A stretch of 39,458 nucleotides of DNA, taken from the IMG/VR virus record IMGVR_UViG_2698536397_000026. The stretch is one strand, 5' to 3'. Shown piece after piece: positions 224 through 39,458 of the stretch (the first letter of the stretch is position 1; the number at the start of each line of letters is the position of its first letter). Below the pieces are notes generated by a model. It was not told where the DNA came from. It saw nothing but the letters and a program-made list of their open reading frames with translations, and searched no databases. Position numbers and translations under genes: made by a program. This DNA is from a virus (Duplodnaviria; Heunggongvirae; Uroviricota; Caudoviricetes).

Positions 224-396
224 TGTAACCAGGTGAATCATTTGATACCAACGAGGGTTTTAGTGAAAGGAGGTGAAATCACCTGTAAGATACTGAAATA
301 AAACAGGTGATGTCTGGATGAGCGCTTAAAGTCTATTTGATACCGATTGTGCAATAATTAATCGTTTATTCTAAAATCGGCAAAACTTTTGATACT
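224..396. repeat. attL: left end with three transposase-binding repeats (TTTGATACY at 241, 336, 388)
   Basis: Motif TTTGATAC(C/T) recurs three times, and three times in inverse orientation at the right end; spacing (95 bp, then 52 bp) resembles Mu L1/L2/L3. Confidence 0.5.
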
Positions 397-494: not shown

Positions 495-1079
495 TTACGC
501 ACCAGCCTTTTTCTGGGTTACATTTAAATGATTAACCTTAGCTTCACATTCTTCATAAATCTCTCTTACAGTATCATCGGGTAACTCTTGTAGACTCAAT
601 GCTAGTGCTCTTTTGACTCCGCTCAATGAGTGTAGTTTTTGAATATCTGTATCAAGCAAAACGGTTAGTAGTTCGGCCCCTTTTCTGATCAATAAGTTGG
701 ACAAAATCTCTTGTTCAGATGAAGTTAGCGAGTCCCACGCCCTCATGATGATGGAATCACTATCATCAATTCTTTGTTTTTTTGTTCTTTTTGTTTGTTC
801 AATTGGTTCTTTTTTCATGCTTGGCTCATCACCATAACCATTGACTAGCCACTCCATAGATACATGTTCTCTTTCTGCAATGTTCTGGAGATGGTGCTTT
901 CTTGGTTGTGGTGGCGGCTGATTGTTTCTCCTTTTGTAGTAGTTCTGCAATGTCTGAACGTTTATTCCCCATGCTCTAGCCGCCTCACTTCTCGATTTGT
1001 AACGCTCTGCAAGACGAAAAATCCGTTCGATCACTGGTTCTTTTCCTTCGTCGAGAAAAGAACTGTTTTTCATGTTCAT
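495..1079 (-). CDS. repressor (Mu c-like), leftward; start chosen at internal ATG with AGGAA RBS (ORF extends to 1208)
   Basis: Divergent to ner at the left end as in Mu; HTH-like segment SRSEAARAWGINVQTLQNYYKRR; AAGGAA 8 nt upstream of ATG at 1079. Confidence 0.55.
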   Translation of the reverse strand: MNMKNSSFLDEGKEPVIERIFRLAERYKSRSEAARAWGINVQTLQNYYKRRNNQPPPQPRKHHLQNIAEREHVSMEWLVNGYGDEPSMKKEPIEQTKRTKKQRIDDSDSIIMRAWDSLTSSEQEILSNLLIRKGAELLTVLLDTDIQKLHSLSGVKRALALSLQELPDDTVREIYEECEAKVNHLNVTQKKAGA

Positions 1080-1118
1080 GCTCTCAGGTTCCTTTGTATT
1101 TATCTTATTGATATTAAT

Positions 1119-1180
1119 AACAAAAACACCGCAAAGAATAAAAAGAACAAAACACCTTGATTTGGTTCTTTTGTTTGTTC
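1119..1180. promoter_or_regulatory. candidate repressor operator repeats between c and ner
   Basis: Direct repeats AACAAAAACACC (1119..1130) and GAACAAAACACC (1145..1156), with inverted partner TGTTTGTTC (1172..1180), in an AT-rich divergent control region. Confidence 0.35.
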
Positions 1181-1186
1181 TATTAT
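1157..1186 (+). promoter_or_regulatory. candidate early promoter (Pe-like) for ner-A-B
   Basis: TTGATT -18 bp- TATTAT about 60 bp upstream of ner ATG. Confidence 0.35.
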
Positions 1187-1197
1187 TTACCCGTACA

Positions 1198-1221
1198 GAT
1201 ATCCGCACGAATATCCGCGCG
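1198..1221. promoter_or_regulatory. candidate Ner operator: tandem 12-bp repeats
   Basis: GATATCCGCACG immediately followed by AATATCCGCGCG, between candidate Pe and ner start; Mu Ner is known to bind tandem repeats in this position. Confidence 0.4.
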
Positions 1222-1246
1222 GGTAACTTTTTAGAATAGAGGAAGT

Positions 1247-1495
1247 ATGAGTAGAAGAGAAGTTTCAGATCACGATTGGCCGCCTGAAATCATCAAGGCG
1301 CGCTTACACATGGCTGGCTTATCACTGCGCTCTTTATCTTTAAAGGCTGGTTACAGCAGGGATTCGCTGAAAAGCGTATTACGTACTCCTTGCCGACCGT
1401 ATCAGCAAATAATTGCTGATGCTCTTGGGGTATCGCCTGAAGAAATCTGGCCCAGTCGATACCAGGTTAAGAGCTATATGAGAAAGGCGTCATGA
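1247..1495 (+). CDS. ner: Ner-like DNA-binding transcriptional regulator
   Basis: 82 aa; C-terminal ...PEEIWPSRYQ matches Mu Ner/Nlp family signature as I recall it; position immediately upstream of transposase; RBS AGAGGAAG. Confidence 0.8.
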   Translation: MSRREVSDHDWPPEIIKARLHMAGLSLRSLSLKAGYSRDSLKSVLRTPCRPYQQIIADALGVSPEEIWPSRYQVKSYMRKAS

Positions 1496-1496
1496 T

Positions 1497-3587
1497 ATGT
1501 ATGTCATTGCAAAAGAACTGATTGGCGCGCCCGGAATGCCTGCTACAACAAAAGGTATTCGCCAGGCATTACAACGTTACGTACAAGGGAAAAGCTGTTG
1601 TTCCCGTCGTCGCTCAGGCTCTAAAGCAACTGAATACAGCATCGACTGTTTACCTGAAGTGACGCAGCAGGCATTACGTGAACGTTATGCCCTGCAACTG
1701 ATGACGCAAAAAGCCGATGAATCACCGGCTCCGGTGGTGACAAAGGCCAGACGCTCATCTGACGTGGTTGATGCGGTGGAGGCATATCGCGGATCACCAC
1801 AACTGATGGTCGAACGCCTCAATGCCCTGACTGAAAACCAGCGCCAGGTGGCTGATGCACGAATCGCGATCGTCAGCGAAGTGATGAAAGTCGCGCAACA
1901 ACCCGGTTTCAGCTGCGCGAAAGCTATCCGGTTTATCGTTGACAACCTGGCACGTTCGCAACTGGACGAGCGCATTGTGGCAATGGTTGAGACGGCGAAC
2001 GCCAAAAAGGGAAACAGCCGTGCGTTGAGTGAAATAACGCTGAAACGCTGGATTGCGGCCTTTAACAAGGCGCAGAACGCCGCTGAACGCCTGCTTTTAC
2101 TGGCACCGGGTAAGCGCCAGGAAATAAAAGCCGAAGATATTAACTGGCTGCCCGAATTTCTGGCGCAGTATCGCCAGTCAAACGGCCGACCAATGACCGA
2201 GGCTTACGAGGATTTTGTCGCTGAATGGCAGCACCGGCACGCTGATGAGCCTTATATGCTCGATATCATGCCGTCTTATGACACCATTCGCCGCGCAATG
2301 AAGAAACTGCCGGAAGTGGTGAAACAAAAAGGCCGGGTGACCGGCAGTGAATACCGCCAGCTTGAGGGATTCACGCGCCGCGACTGGTCAAAAATGCCGG
2401 TGAATTATGTCTGGATTGGTGACGGTCACGGCATGAAGCTGAAATGCGCACACCCGGTTCACGGTCGGCCATTTGCACCGGAAGTGACCTTTGTTATCGA
2501 CGGTGGCACGCGCTTTGTGGTGGGCTGGAGCCTTGACCTGGCTGAAAATGTTTTCGCCGTAGCCGGTGCCATACAGCACGGCATTCGCCATCACGGCAAA
2601 CCGTTTCTGTATTACTCGGATAACGGCTCCGGGGAAACCGCCGACATCCTGGATAAGGAGGTTGTGGGGATACTGCCGCGACTGGGGATTAATCACCCGA
2701 CCGGGATTGCCGGTAATCCGCAGGGACGAGGCATTATCGAACGGCTTAACCGCACATTACCGATGCGCATAGCCCGTAAATACCGCACCTATTTCGGGAA
2801 AGGTGCAGATCGCGAGACGTTACGCAAAACCAACCGCGATTTACGCTCGGCATTTACTGCCCTGCAACAGGGCAAACGGCTGAACGCCCGGCAGCAGTCA
2901 GCGATGCGTGATTTACCGTCCTGGTCTGAACTGATTGATGCCATTCGTGACGGTGTTGAGTGGTACAACAACCGGCCGCACGATGAATTACCGGTGAAGC
3001 CGAACGGCAAGCATTACAGCCCGGCGGAGTTCAGAAAAAAACGCCTGGCGGAAGAGGACACGGAAATTGAATGGCTGTCCGATGTTGAGCTGCGGGATAT
3101 GTTCCGGCCGATGGTGGAACGCCCTGTAAGACGCTGTGAAATACGCTGGCTGAATAATATTTACTACGCGCCCGAGCTGCGTGACGAGCATGGTCGTAAG
3201 GTGCTTATCAGCTATGACATTCATGATGCCGAACGAATTACCGTACGTCGCCTGGATGGCAGCGTGATTTGCGAGGCGGTATGGGACGGTAATAAACGCG
3301 AAGCCTTCCCGGTTAGCGCGGAATACTACAAACAGCAGCAACGCCTTAAAGGCATGCGTAAACGCGCAGAGGAAAAAATCCGTGATGCCGAGGATGAGGT
3401 TGTCAACGTGCTGGAGCACAAGCCGCAGGAGCCCTGGCTGGAAAACATATACCGCCCTGTGGGTAATACGGTGACCGTTCAGCAACCGGTCGCTGACGAT
3501 GAACCTGATGAAGAATACGAGCGTAATTTCCAGCGGGGATTGCAGTTGCTGGAAGCGAAATTAAAAGAAAATGACCCGCTGGCCTGA
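1497..3587 (+). CDS. A: Mu-type DDE transposase (MuA-like)
   Basis: 696 aa, second gene of early operon, start overlaps ner stop (TGATATG); size and position as MuA. Confidence 0.85.
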   Translation: MYVIAKELIGAPGMPATTKGIRQALQRYVQGKSCCSRRRSGSKATEYSIDCLPEVTQQALRERYALQLMTQKADESPAPVVTKARRSSDVVDAVEAYRGSPQLMVERLNALTENQRQVADARIAIVSEVMKVAQQPGFSCAKAIRFIVDNLARSQLDERIVAMVETANAKKGNSRALSEITLKRWIAAFNKAQNAAERLLLLAPGKRQEIKAEDINWLPEFLAQYRQSNGRPMTEAYEDFVAEWQHRHADEPYMLDIMPSYDTIRRAMKKLPEVVKQKGRVTGSEYRQLEGFTRRDWSKMPVNYVWIGDGHGMKLKCAHPVHGRPFAPEVTFVIDGGTRFVVGWSLDLAENVFAVAGAIQHGIRHHGKPFLYYSDNGSGETADILDKEVVGILPRLGINHPTGIAGNPQGRGIIERLNRTLPMRIARKYRTYFGKGADRETLRKTNRDLRSAFTALQQGKRLNARQQSAMRDLPSWSELIDAIRDGVEWYNNRPHDELPVKPNGKHYSPAEFRKKRLAEEDTEIEWLSDVELRDMFRPMVERPVRRCEIRWLNNIYYAPELRDEHGRKVLISYDIHDAERITVRRLDGSVICEAVWDGNKREAFPVSAEYYKQQQRLKGMRKRAEEKIRDAEDEVVNVLEHKPQEPWLENIYRPVGNTVTVQQPVADDEPDEEYERNFQRGLQLLEAKLKENDPLA

Positions 3588-3658
3588 AATAAAAAAATAA
3601 CCCGAGCGGCGACTCAGGTTATTTGATTAAACAAGGTATCAAATGAGAGGTTAATAAT

Positions 3659-4591
3659 ATGACTGATATTAACGATGTAATCAAGACCATTGATGAACTT
3701 ATTGATGGCGGCGTACTGACGCAGTATGCCATCGCCAGAGAGGCGGGAATTTCCGACGGCACATTATCGGCTTTCCGTAAGGGAAAATATAAAGGCGATA
3801 ACGCTGCTGTGGCTGCTTCCCTGCGTTCCTGGTATGAGAACTGGAATAAACAAAGCGCACTGCCGGAACCGCCGCAGTTTGTGGAAACGCAGACAGTCCA
3901 GGAGCTGCGCGCACTGTTTCAGGCGGTTCGTCTGATGGGCTGTATTAACGTTATTGTGGGCGTACCGGGTGTGGGTAAAACGGCCACTGCCCGTAATTAC
4001 TGCCAGGAGCAACCAAACACCTGGATGATCACCCTGTCACCCGCGCACTCCAGCGTCACGGAGTGTCTGCTGGAGCTGGCCGATGCGCTGGGGATTGATT
4101 ACACCCGCGCGAACAAAGGGGCATTATCCCGCGCCATCCGCCGTCGCCTGATGGGAACGCGTGGACTGGTGATTGTGGATGAGGCGGATCATCTTGGTAT
4201 TGACGGTCTGGAGCAACTCCGGGCAATTCAGGACGCCACGGGGATCGGGATGGTGCTTATTGGTAACCCGCGCGGATTGTTTAAAGGTGGACGCCGCGCC
4301 TTTGATGATTTATCGCGCCTGTTCAGCCGTCTTGCCCGTACAAAACAACTTCGCAAGGCCAAAAAGGCGGATGTGCTGGCCATTGCCAGGGCGTGGGGGA
4401 TCAGTGGTGAGGCCGAGCTGGCCGTCATGCAGGCTATCGCTGAAAAGCCGGGAGCGTTACGCGTTCTGACACATACGCTTAACCAGGCGTGGCTCACCGC
4501 CAGCGGTGAAGGCGCGGCGCTGACAGAAAAACATATTAATGCGGCCTTTAAAGAGGTTTATACCAACCCTGAATTACTCTCACAGGTGTGA
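3659..4591 (+). CDS. B: transposition ATPase / target DNA activator (MuB-like)
   Basis: 310 aa; Walker A GVPGVGKT and Walker B LVIVDEAD; directly after transposase. Confidence 0.85.
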   Translation: MTDINDVIKTIDELIDGGVLTQYAIAREAGISDGTLSAFRKGKYKGDNAAVAASLRSWYENWNKQSALPEPPQFVETQTVQELRALFQAVRLMGCINVIVGVPGVGKTATARNYCQEQPNTWMITLSPAHSSVTECLLELADALGIDYTRANKGALSRAIRRRLMGTRGLVIVDEADHLGIDGLEQLRAIQDATGIGMVLIGNPRGLFKGGRRAFDDLSRLFSRLARTKQLRKAKKADVLAIARAWGISGEAELAVMQAIAEKPGALRVLTHTLNQAWLTASGEGAALTEKHINAAFKEVYTNPELLSQV

Positions 4592-16639: not shown

Positions 16640-17954
16640 TTTAGGTTATGCCGCCACCCTTCCCTCAAAAGAGGCGGTGGCATACTTCCGCGCCAAAGGG
16701 GCGCATATCAGCTGGAACTGGTTCGAAACAGACGCGGATGTTCATGCCCGTTCATTCACGGCGGCAAGAGTGGCACGCCTGGACGTACTGACCACACTAC
16801 AGGCGGAAGTGCAGCGTGCTGTTGATGAGGGGATTTCACAGAAAGCATTTATCAGCACGCTGACACCCCGCCTGCAAAAGCTGGGATGGTGGGGAAAACA
16901 GATTGTGGTGGACAGCGCCGGTAACGCAGAAGAAGTGCAGCTGGGCAGTCCCCGCCGTCTGGCGCTGATTTACAACGTGAACACCCGTGTGGCTTACAAT
17001 GCCGGGCGTTACACGCAGATGATGAACAACACGGACACGCATCCGTTCTGGCAGTATGTGGCGGTGATGGACAGCCGCACCCGCCCGGCGCATTCCGCTC
17101 TTAACGGTCTGGTATTCCGCTATGACGATCCGTTCTGGAATACACACTACCCACCCAATGGCTGGAACTGTCGCTGCCGTGTCCGGCCATTGTCTCAGGC
17201 CCGTCTGGATGCAATGGGGTTATCCGTTTCATCCGGTCAGGATCATCTCTCCACCCGCAATGTTGAGGCTGGCGTGGATAAGCAGACCGGGGAAGTCAGA
17301 GAAATGCCGGTGACCACATATTCAGATGGCACCAGAACCATGACACCGGATGTGGGCTGGTCATATAACCCCGGTTCGGCGGCGTTCGGCACAGACCAGG
17401 CGCTGATCCGTAAACTGATCGAGGTGAAAAGCCCGGCGCTGCGGGAAATGGTGGTTCAGGAGATGAACAACAGCCCGGAGCGGCAACTGGCGTTCCGCAT
17501 CTGGGCAAAAAACATCATGAAAACCCGGCGAGGCGGTAACGATATCCGCACGCTGGGCTTTATGACCGAAAGCATTGCGCAGGCGGTGGAAAGCCGGACG
17601 GGAACGCCACCGGCCCGCCTGCTGGCGATGAGCGGTAAAAATGTGCTCCATGCGGACAGCATGAAACATCAGAATGACGGTATCGCCCTGACGCCGGAGG
17701 ATTTCGGGCGCTTACCGGCAATGCTGGCAAGGCCAAAAGCGGTACTGTGGGACAAACGGCACAACAATCTGATGTATATCGTGGAAAATCAGGATGGCAG
17801 TGTGCAGATTGCCGTTAATGCACCGTACAGCCTGAAGCGTCAGCCGGATAAACTGGATGTGATTGTTAATGCTTACCGGGTTATCAATATGGATAAGCTG
17901 AAATCGGATATCCGGGGCGGAATGCTTGAGGTACTGGAAGGAGATATTGATTAA
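16623..17954 (+). CDS. head morphogenesis protein (Mu F-like)
   Basis: 443 aa, follows portal as in Mu. Confidence 0.6.
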   Translation: MAQGIDLGYAATLPSKEAVAYFRAKGAHISWNWFETDADVHARSFTAARVARLDVLTTLQAEVQRAVDEGISQKAFISTLTPRLQKLGWWGKQIVVDSAGNAEEVQLGSPRRLALIYNVNTRVAYNAGRYTQMMNNTDTHPFWQYVAVMDSRTRPAHSALNGLVFRYDDPFWNTHYPPNGWNCRCRVRPLSQARLDAMGLSVSSGQDHLSTRNVEAGVDKQTGEVREMPVTTYSDGTRTMTPDVGWSYNPGSAAFGTDQALIRKLIEVKSPALREMVVQEMNNSPERQLAFRIWAKNIMKTRRGGNDIRTLGFMTESIAQAVESRTGTPPARLLAMSGKNVLHADSMKHQNDGIALTPEDFGRLPAMLARPKAVLWDKRHNNLMYIVENQDGSVQIAVNAPYSLKRQPDKLDVIVNAYRVINMDKLKSDIRGGMLEVLEGDID

Positions 17955-38951: not shown

Positions 38952-39036
38952 AGTATCAAATAAGTTGCGTATCGGCGTTTTTCAGCGGTATCAAATGAAA
39001 TGCAAATCGGTATCAAAAAAATCGCCGCGCTATACA
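38952..39036. repeat. attR: right end with three inverted transposase-binding repeats (rTTTGATACY at 38952, 38988, 39009), terminus ...GCGCTATACA
   Basis: GGTATCAAA / AGTATCAAA are reverse complements of left-end repeats; terminal CGCCGCGCTATACA resembles the Mu right end in my recollection. Confidence 0.5.
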
Positions 39037-39350: not shown

Positions 39351-39458
39351 ATGACGCTCGCGCAGTTTGCCATGATTTTCTGGCACGACCTGGCAGCACC
39401 GATCCTGGCGGGAATTATTACCGCAGCGATTGTCGGCTGGTGGCGTAACCGGAAGTAA
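39351..39458 (+). CDS. ldr: Ldr-family type I toxin peptide (35 aa), flanking host copy 2
   Basis: MTLAQFAMIFWHDLAAPILAGIITAAIVGWWRNRK; differs from copy 1 at 2 of 108 nt (K5Q plus one silent change). Confidence 0.6.
   Translation: MTLAQFAMIFWHDLAAPILAGIITAAIVGWWRNRK

Follow-up and report, generated by a model that had tools for sequence, protein, structure and literature searches.

In bacteriophage Mu, operators and transpositional enhancer coincide, a duality that exists because the Mu repressor and the I-alpha domain of the transposase MuA are homologous; the family PF02316 unites both. Separated operators are familiar from other phages, OL-OR of lambda and the flanking sites of phage 186 among them. 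The Mu enhancer, which overlaps O1-O3 at a distance of about 1 kb from the left end, contains an IHF site with a cluster of MuA sites on either side (PMC3145075), and the I-alpha domain is the part of MuA that binds it (PMC3362531). TP901-1 possesses three separated CI operators, OR, OL and OD (PMC7250872), the Ner-family protein EnrR places two closely packed molecules on short palindromic DNA (PMC9023278), and Sp18 is a Mu-like prophage predicted to be intact (PMC2669165). Here we analyse a putative control region at positions 1080-1246 of IMG/VR record IMGVR_UViG_2698536397_000026, a stretch of 39,458 nucleotides (the window throughout) that consists of Escherichia coli chromosome with a Mu-like prophage. 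Direct comparison places this prophage in the family of Sp18 of E. coli O157:H7 Sakai. The literature that we searched yielded no description of the control region of this prophage family.

Based on the comparison of this region with its relatives, we propose a model in which the spacer between the leftward repressor gene and the rightward ner gene is quite probably the lysis-lysogeny switch of a transposable, Mu-like prophage of the Sp18 type. The positions of the elements, their conservation and co-variation, and the boundaries of the exchanged modules were read directly from the aligned relatives. A sigma-70 promoter, Pe (1157-1186), whose place is conserved, is predicted to drive ner, A and B rightward. 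The repressor, to which the comparison assigns the A-tract repeats, would bind an inverted repeat of A-tract half-sites at about 1133-1182 together with an extra copy at 1119-1130, and occupancy of this operator would shut out RNA polymerase, so that the prophage stays silent. Copies of the motif at 780-815, and possibly at 1035-1063, may let repressor oligomers bridge sites that are 130-380 bp apart. After induction, Ner would bind the array at 1186-1233, which is linked to ner and spans roughly +1 to +40 of Pe, and as a Cro-like roadblock would throttle early transcription. We infer the pairing of each protein with its sites and the looping. In kind the region is ordinary: it is an uncharacterised, heteroimmune but expected example of a known switch type. 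Its elements, in window coordinates, are the following.

404-1181, unstranded: immunity cassette, about 55-65% identical to the Sp18 type, with flanks at about 100% (alignment of the window with locus L001)
780-815, unstranded: distal operator-like element in non-conserved linker codons of the repressor gene, resembling the right operator arm
1035-1063, unstranded: inverted repeat GTTCTTTTC-N9-GAAAAGAAC in repressor codons 6-15, 100% complementary
1098-1113, unstranded: conserved block TAT-C-nn-ATTGAW, adjoining the repressor ribosome-binding site and conserved by eye in many relatives
1119-1130, plus strand: candidate upstream operator half-site copy AACAAAAACACC, with analogous upstream direct copies in relatives
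1133-1156, plus strand: candidate zone of the left operator arm, AAAGAATAAAAAGAACAAAACACC, immediately next to the -35 hexamer (inverted-repeat search and relatives)
1157-1186, plus strand: predicted early promoter Pe, with -35 TTGATT at 1157-1162, an 18-nt spacer and -10 TATTAT at 1181-1186
1161-1182, minus strand: candidate right arm of the operator, TTTGGTTCTTTTGTTTGTTCTA, which occupies the promoter spacer and differs between the window and the Sp18 type, which have the same ner and A
1186-1233, plus strand: 12-bp-phased array of four WTAWCC-type cores (units 1186-1197, 1198-1209, 1210-1221 and 1222-1233), with gapless conservation
1198-1215, unstranded: central dyad of the array, GATATCCG-CA-CGAATATC (complementarity in 27 relatives)
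1223-1239, plus strand: near-invariant leader GTAACTTTTTAG(A/G)ATAG, columns 39-49 and 51-53 being invariant in 27 distinct relatives

The spacer stretches from the repressor ATG (1079, minus strand) to the ner ATG (1247). It lies between the two divergent genes and is AT-rich, as the preliminary description of this DNA had stated (GC content 34% versus 53% for the window), while its length is 167 bp rather than the 170 bp given there. The likeness to Mu extends to gene order and orientation (c, operators, Pe, Ner site, ner, A, B), to a distance of about 0.9-1.0 kb from the left end, to a Ner that is homologous to Mu Ner and to a Mu-type N-terminal domain of the transposase; in addition, the candidate repressor sites overlap Pe and the candidate Ner sites stand just downstream of it. 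The differences from Mu concern the repressor, which here belongs to another family and has no Mu-type winged-helix domain, the operator, which here is a simple dyad across the -35 hexamer with remote copies inside the repressor gene, and IHF, for which no significant site was present among the consensus matches.

The comparison covered Pseudomonas phage VW-6B, Yersinia phage Tongde and the Mu-like inserts of Shiga toxin phages, all from phage records, as well as E. coli genomes, 34 viral contigs and 80 genome contigs, the last of these found with a Ner profile. Relatives occur in 233 of 5426 complete E. coli genomes and are full-length in 90. With the alignment anchored on the near-invariant leader, the region is gapless in close relatives. 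The same leader is also kept with the other Ner type (loci L007 and L123). Measured from the leader, the Pe hexamers stand at a constant offset in more than 40 relatives, and this constancy spans Escherichia, Yersinia, Serratia, Kluyvera, Pantoea, Sodalis and a Pseudomonas phage. The hexamers themselves vary (TTGATT, TTGAAT, TTGACA and similar at -35; TATTAT, TATTCT, TATGCT and similar at -10) within the pattern TTGAnn-17/18-TAnnnT, the spacing being 17 nt in relatives and 18 nt in the window. The rightward promoter-like element TTGATT-18-TATTAT that had been noticed earlier is present, with 9/12 matches and a fixed register in relatives, and is the sole promoter-like site in 900-1400. Its positional conservation across genera supports the assignment of 1157-1186 as the probable early promoter, from which transcription is predicted to start near 1193.

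Around the -35 hexamer of Pe, an inverted repeat is found in every relative: the left arm ends at the hexamer, and the spacer of the promoter is taken up by the right arm. Three parts make up an arm, namely an outer block that is specific, an A-tract and, on the inside, (G/T/C)A(A/C)C, and the operator sequence differs with the repressor type. The two direct A-rich repeats of the preliminary description are where it had placed them (AACAAAAACACC at 1119-1130 and AACAAAACACC at 1146-1156), as is their inverted partner (GGTTCTTTTGTT at 1164-1175). Read as arms, the window has AACAAAACACC...GGTTCTTTTGTT, overlapping AAAAGAAC...GTTCTTTT; the Sp18 type has CCAAAAATACC...GGTATTTTT, locus L024 has ATCACGAAAAATACC-TTGAATT-GGTATTTTTCGTGAT and locus L023 has AACATAAAAAGAAC-GTTTGACAG-GTTCTTTTTATGTT. 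A gapless test of arm symmetry gave a weaker result, blurred by differences in A-tract length and by generic A/T symmetry, and was replaced by a local-alignment permutation test. Among 16 distinct types, complementarity is higher between the two arms of one locus than between permuted pairs (mean local score 9.44 versus 7.35; reached in 0 of 20000 permutations). Covariation of the repeats among related prophages had been suggested as a check, and it is what the comparison returns: the arms flanking the -35 hexamer co-vary and their positions are kept. This supports repressor operators that overlap Pe; the comparison likewise supports a Mu-like prophage whose control region, between the divergent repressor and ner genes, has a rightward early promoter.

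Which of these elements travel with the repressor and which with ner? Sp18 of Sakai, which is of the L001 type, and its relatives share with the window an essentially identical left end, -10 hexamer and Ner array and essentially identical ner, A and B genes; no difference occurs in the first 100 residues of A, and the repressor of the Sp18 type is about 43% identical to that of the window. Identity between the two stands at about 100% over 224-403, at 55-65% over 404-1181 and at about 100% again from 1182 on, and the right boundary of the cassette, 1181/1182, falls inside the -10 hexamer (TATTAT versus CATTAT). Because the boundary lies at this point, the A-tract repeats belong with the repressor and the 12-bp repeats with the ner/A side. 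A second ner type (L007) joins yet another repressor (L123) at an equivalent point near the -10 hexamer. The window carries operators of the AACAAAACACC/AAAAGAAC type, whereas those of Sp18 are of the CCAAAAATACC type; since repressor and operators both differ, the window element is predicted to be heteroimmune to Sp18. Immunity regions are exchanged as modules here as they are in the pair Mu/D108. In the E. coli type represented by L007 and L123, the divergent module runs from the repressor through ner into A, of which it takes in the first 40-58 codons (L007 3734-3900 versus window 1497-1670), and a swap that reaches into the N-terminus of A recalls the difference between Mu and D108. Unlike the exchange in Mu/D108, the swap between the window and Sp18 ends at the -10 hexamer and leaves ner and the N-terminus of A untouched.

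Copies of the operator motif also lie within the repressor gene. The sequence TTGGTTCTTTT at 803-813 is identical to 1162-1172, and GTTCTTTTTGTTTGTTC at 784-800 resembles 1165-1180. Eight copies of AAAAGAAC are present in the window, seven of them between 784 and 1518; the six within 495-1246 compare with a mean of 0.14 in local shuffles, 0 of 5000 of which reach six. The motif TGGTTCTTTT has exactly three copies, at 804, 1035 and 1163 (0/5000 local shuffles). Remote copies of the operator sequence are thereby present at 780-815 and at 1035-1044. Relatives carry their own operator type at the distal site, as seen from the paired sequences in the Sp18 type (CCAAAATTACCACAAATACC versus CCAAAATACCAAAAATACC), in L045 (TTCGCTCTTTTTGTTCT versus TTCGTTCTTTTTGGTCT) and in L048 (GGTTTCTTTAGTT versus GGTTTCTTTAGGTT). 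The similarity between a type's own operator and its own gene exceeds that of cross pairs (0/20000 permutations), and for 17 of the 23 types the best own match is located between -447 and -375 relative to the anchor or just overlaps the edge of that interval. We take the element at 780-815 to be a putative distant operator, situated within the repressor gene and well placed for repressor oligomers to form a bridge. Such a layout resembles those of TP901-1, lambda and 186 in having a primary operator at the lytic promoter and remote copies a few hundred base pairs away. Unlike in these phages, the remote copy here sits in the repressor's own coding sequence, within a variable linker, and looping is a proposal drawn from this arrangement.

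The AAAGAAC/GTTCTTT repeats of the inverted repeat at 1035-1063 lie in the first 20 codons of the repressor gene, and in 17 diverged relatives the codons are fixed (Ser-Phe as TCT TTT in 10/10, Lys-Glu as AAA GAA in 23/23), while nearby synonymous sites do vary in the same relatives. This invariance indicates a probable constraint at the DNA or RNA level. An RNA hairpin at the 5' codons of the repressor was considered and rejected, as it is not unusually stable (z-score -0.9).

On the other side of the cassette boundary, the tandem 12-bp repeats noted earlier just upstream of ner (GATATCCGCACG at 1198-1209 and AATATCCGCGCG at 1210-1221, 10/12 identical) were accurately described for this sequence; the description was incomplete in that relatives have a four-unit array with a dyad centre. 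In order, the units of the window are TTTACCCGTACA, GATATCCGCACG, AATATCCGCGCG and GGTAACTTTTTA, and among 37 distinct relatives the cores hold 1.55-1.77 bits per column versus 0.88-1.18 between cores. In the central dyad, 86% of cells are complementary and 4 pairs have changed on both sides (27 relatives), the covariation is 0.177 versus 0.071 in shuffles, with 0/500 reaching the observed value, and several close relatives have a perfect 18-bp palindrome, GATAACCGCGCGGTTATC. The neighbouring dyad at 1210-1227 was tested for covariation and displayed none. In the more distant relatives L068, L072 and L074, the GAT(T)AWCC repeats are clearly direct and follow one another at a period of 12-13 bp. 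The direct-repeat and the dyad readings of the array coexist, the core itself being pseudo-palindromic (GATATC in the window). Wherever the array is conserved, hardly any variation occurs in the recognition helix of Ner, (K/R)DSLKSVLRTPC; L007 departs from the other loci in this helix and in the array spacers alike, and in the cassette comparisons the array is inherited with ner. The comparison is thus in favour of the earlier suggestion of Ner-type sites just upstream of ner, with the array travelling on the ner/A side. In EnrR (PDB 7F9I), a homologous helix-turn-helix protein, close packing on a palindrome fits the GATATC/GATAAC cores of the array. EnrR prefers AT-rich AATAAATNATTTATT sites genome-wide, whereas the array here is richer in G+C, has four units and belongs to one promoter. 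A resemblance of TTATCCGCA to a DnaA box, seen by eye, was discarded: it reaches 8/9 at best and is absent from the window's own cores. An exact additional copy of an array unit, ATATCCGCACG, lies far inside the prophage at 17542-17552.

How well does the proposed switch stand up to other explanations? Several observations weigh against it. Judged from the window by itself, neither the A-rich repeats nor the promoter reaches significance: in dinucleotide-preserving shuffles of the spacer (n = 1000), the best direct 11-mer pair was equalled in 107 and the best inverted 12-mer pair in 55, and the one promoter-like site found in 900-1400 compares with 0.8 expected per 500 bp. The A-tract/T-tract symmetry is partly generic, as cross-type arm pairs lie well above shuffles in the gapless test, and the complementarity of the window's own arms is middling, 4 of 15 foreign arms scoring equally. 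The compensatory changes in the central dyad stem from few independent events. Ner and the N-terminal domain of the transposase are conserved together in all relatives, only two linked types of ner and A N-terminus being present in the 233 E. coli genomes with a match, and because both co-segregate, the comparison does not assign the array to Ner rather than to the transposase. A minus-strand scan of 900-1400 and inspection by eye gave no leftward promoter for the repressor, and the searched literature held no binding, transcription-start or reporter data for this prophage family. Taken by themselves, the shuffle counts, the expected number of promoter-like sites and the partial symmetry of cross-type arms would suit repeats that are chance products of an AT-rich, low-complexity spacer, an ordinary promoter aside. 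The tandem 12-mer pair was equalled in 5/1000 shuffles, and the A-rich repeats and the promoter gain significance because their positions are conserved and their sequences co-vary in relatives. Gapless positional conservation across genera, the co-varying arms, a cassette boundary exactly at the -10 hexamer, the over-representation of the motif relative to local composition and the copies inside the repressor gene that co-vary with operator type all speak against chance, which is already disfavoured and which we consider extremely improbable.

The dyad and the array might act in RNA, as a 5' stem-loop of the early leader that affects stability or translation, and not as DNA bound by Ner. The central dyad would give a hairpin of 7-8 bp near the 5' end of the transcript, the proportion of pairing cells and the four two-sided changes are those expected of a stem, pairing is kept through G-U in one relative (L067), and the leader that follows the array is almost invariant. 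However, symmetric protein sites yield the same co-variation, the second dyad at 1210-1227 has none, and the direct repeats of L068, L072 and L074 cannot form the central-dyad hairpin. Furthermore, searches against Rfam gave no family match, only far sub-threshold ones, and the 12-bp phasing of four cores is a feature of one face of the DNA. We judge a function in RNA to be very unlikely and favour the array as a binding site for Ner within the switch.

Does the spacer also contain the transposition enhancer, as the preliminary description had thought likely? By analogy with Mu, the I-alpha domain would bind the operator clusters and would be out-competed by the repressor. In favour of such an arrangement, a DNA-binding domain of the Mu type is retained at the N-terminus of the transposase (PF02316, 1TNS and the alignment), and the spacer occupies the interval 857-1023 bp inward of the prophage's left end, near the distance of about 1 kb at which the Mu enhancer is found. 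However, the repressor belongs to a family without PF02316 and has no profile similarity to the N-terminus of the transposase: BLASTP gave an E-value of 0.89 and hhalign a profile-profile probability of 0.2%, whereas a Mu repressor sequence not taken from a database record, used as a positive control, matches the same A profile at 94.6%. Because the repressor is not homologous to the N-terminus of the transposase, the basis for a Mu-style duality of operator and enhancer is missing here. In addition, the window and the Sp18 type differ in their operator arms and yet share an identical stretch of 100 residues at the start of A, and the ATTGAW block matches the IHF consensus WATCAANNNNTTR at 8/9, a value that about one third of shuffles equal and that is not above chance. 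The IHF-like TAT-C-nn-ATTGAW block sits about 20 bp from the repressor start codon. The argument from Mu fails, nothing that we found points to an enhancer in or near the spacer, and a Mu-style enhancer in the spacer is, in our estimation, unlikely. It is conceivable, if quite unlikely, that the enhancer is type-invariant DNA that co-segregates with the N-terminus of the transposase, namely the WTAWCC array at 1186-1233 and/or the AAAGAAC/GTTCTTT repeats at 1035-1063. If this were true, Ner and not the repressor would compete with the transposase, and the competition between repressor and transposase known from Mu would be rewired.

The switch is embedded in a gene layout consisting of a divergent repressor/ner pair followed by transposase A and ATPase B, as established from open reading frames and Pfam/PHROG assignments.

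495-1079, minus strand: repressor gene, 194 amino acids, matching phrog_3037 'transcriptional repressor' (E 2e-59)
1239-1245, plus strand: ner ribosome-binding site GAGGAAG, read from the sequence, with GAGGA/GATGA/GTGGA aligned in relatives
1247-1495, plus strand: ner gene, 82 amino acids, PF13693 (E 2.5e-19)
1497-3587, plus strand: transposase A, PF02316 and PF09299 (Mu-transpos_C)
3659-4591, rightward: ATPase B (open reading frame and Pfam assignment)

The alignment divides the repressor into an N-terminal helix-turn-helix domain, a non-conserved linker and a conserved C-terminal domain; in Pfam it has a weak match to HTH_23 only, PF02316 being absent, and its homologue in phage VW-6B is annotated as 'C repressor'. 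Ner matches the structure of Mu Ner, 1NEQ (E 9e-9), and that of EnrR, 7F9H (E 2e-8). Residues 6-143 of transposase A match the Mu DNA-binding domain family PF02316 (E 2e-6), and a match to the structure of the Mu transposase I-alpha domain, 1TNS (E 0.01), as well as an alignment, agree with this assignment. The left end of the prophage is the TG at 224, as the sequence shared with other genomes, where it is inserted at many different sites, starts at 223-224. A candidate end-binding repeat for the transposase, ATTTGATACC, is present at both prophage ends (240-249 and 335-344, plus strand; 38952-39018, minus strand), and an exact additional copy lies between the A and B genes (3635-3644, minus strand). 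At both ends of the window, 1-108 and 39352-39458, there are near-identical open reading frames for a 35-amino-acid Ldr-type toxin (MTLA(K/Q)FAMIFWHDLAAPILAGIITAAIVGWWRNRK); the prophage is therefore placed in a long-direct-repeat region.

What does this arrangement mean for the family? It provides a testable map of the switch for a group of prophages that roughly 4% of complete E. coli genomes carry, many Shiga-toxin-producing strains included. The textbook link between operator and enhancer in Mu is not transferable on position alone. The parts most worth experiment are the intragenic, co-varying operator-like element and the location of the enhancer. Elements of the Sp18 family insert into and inactivate other genes and prophages, and for the member described here our model predicts heteroimmunity to Sp18 of Sakai, exchange of the immunity cassette with a breakpoint inside the -10 hexamer, and a repressor gene that would carry a copy of its own operator.

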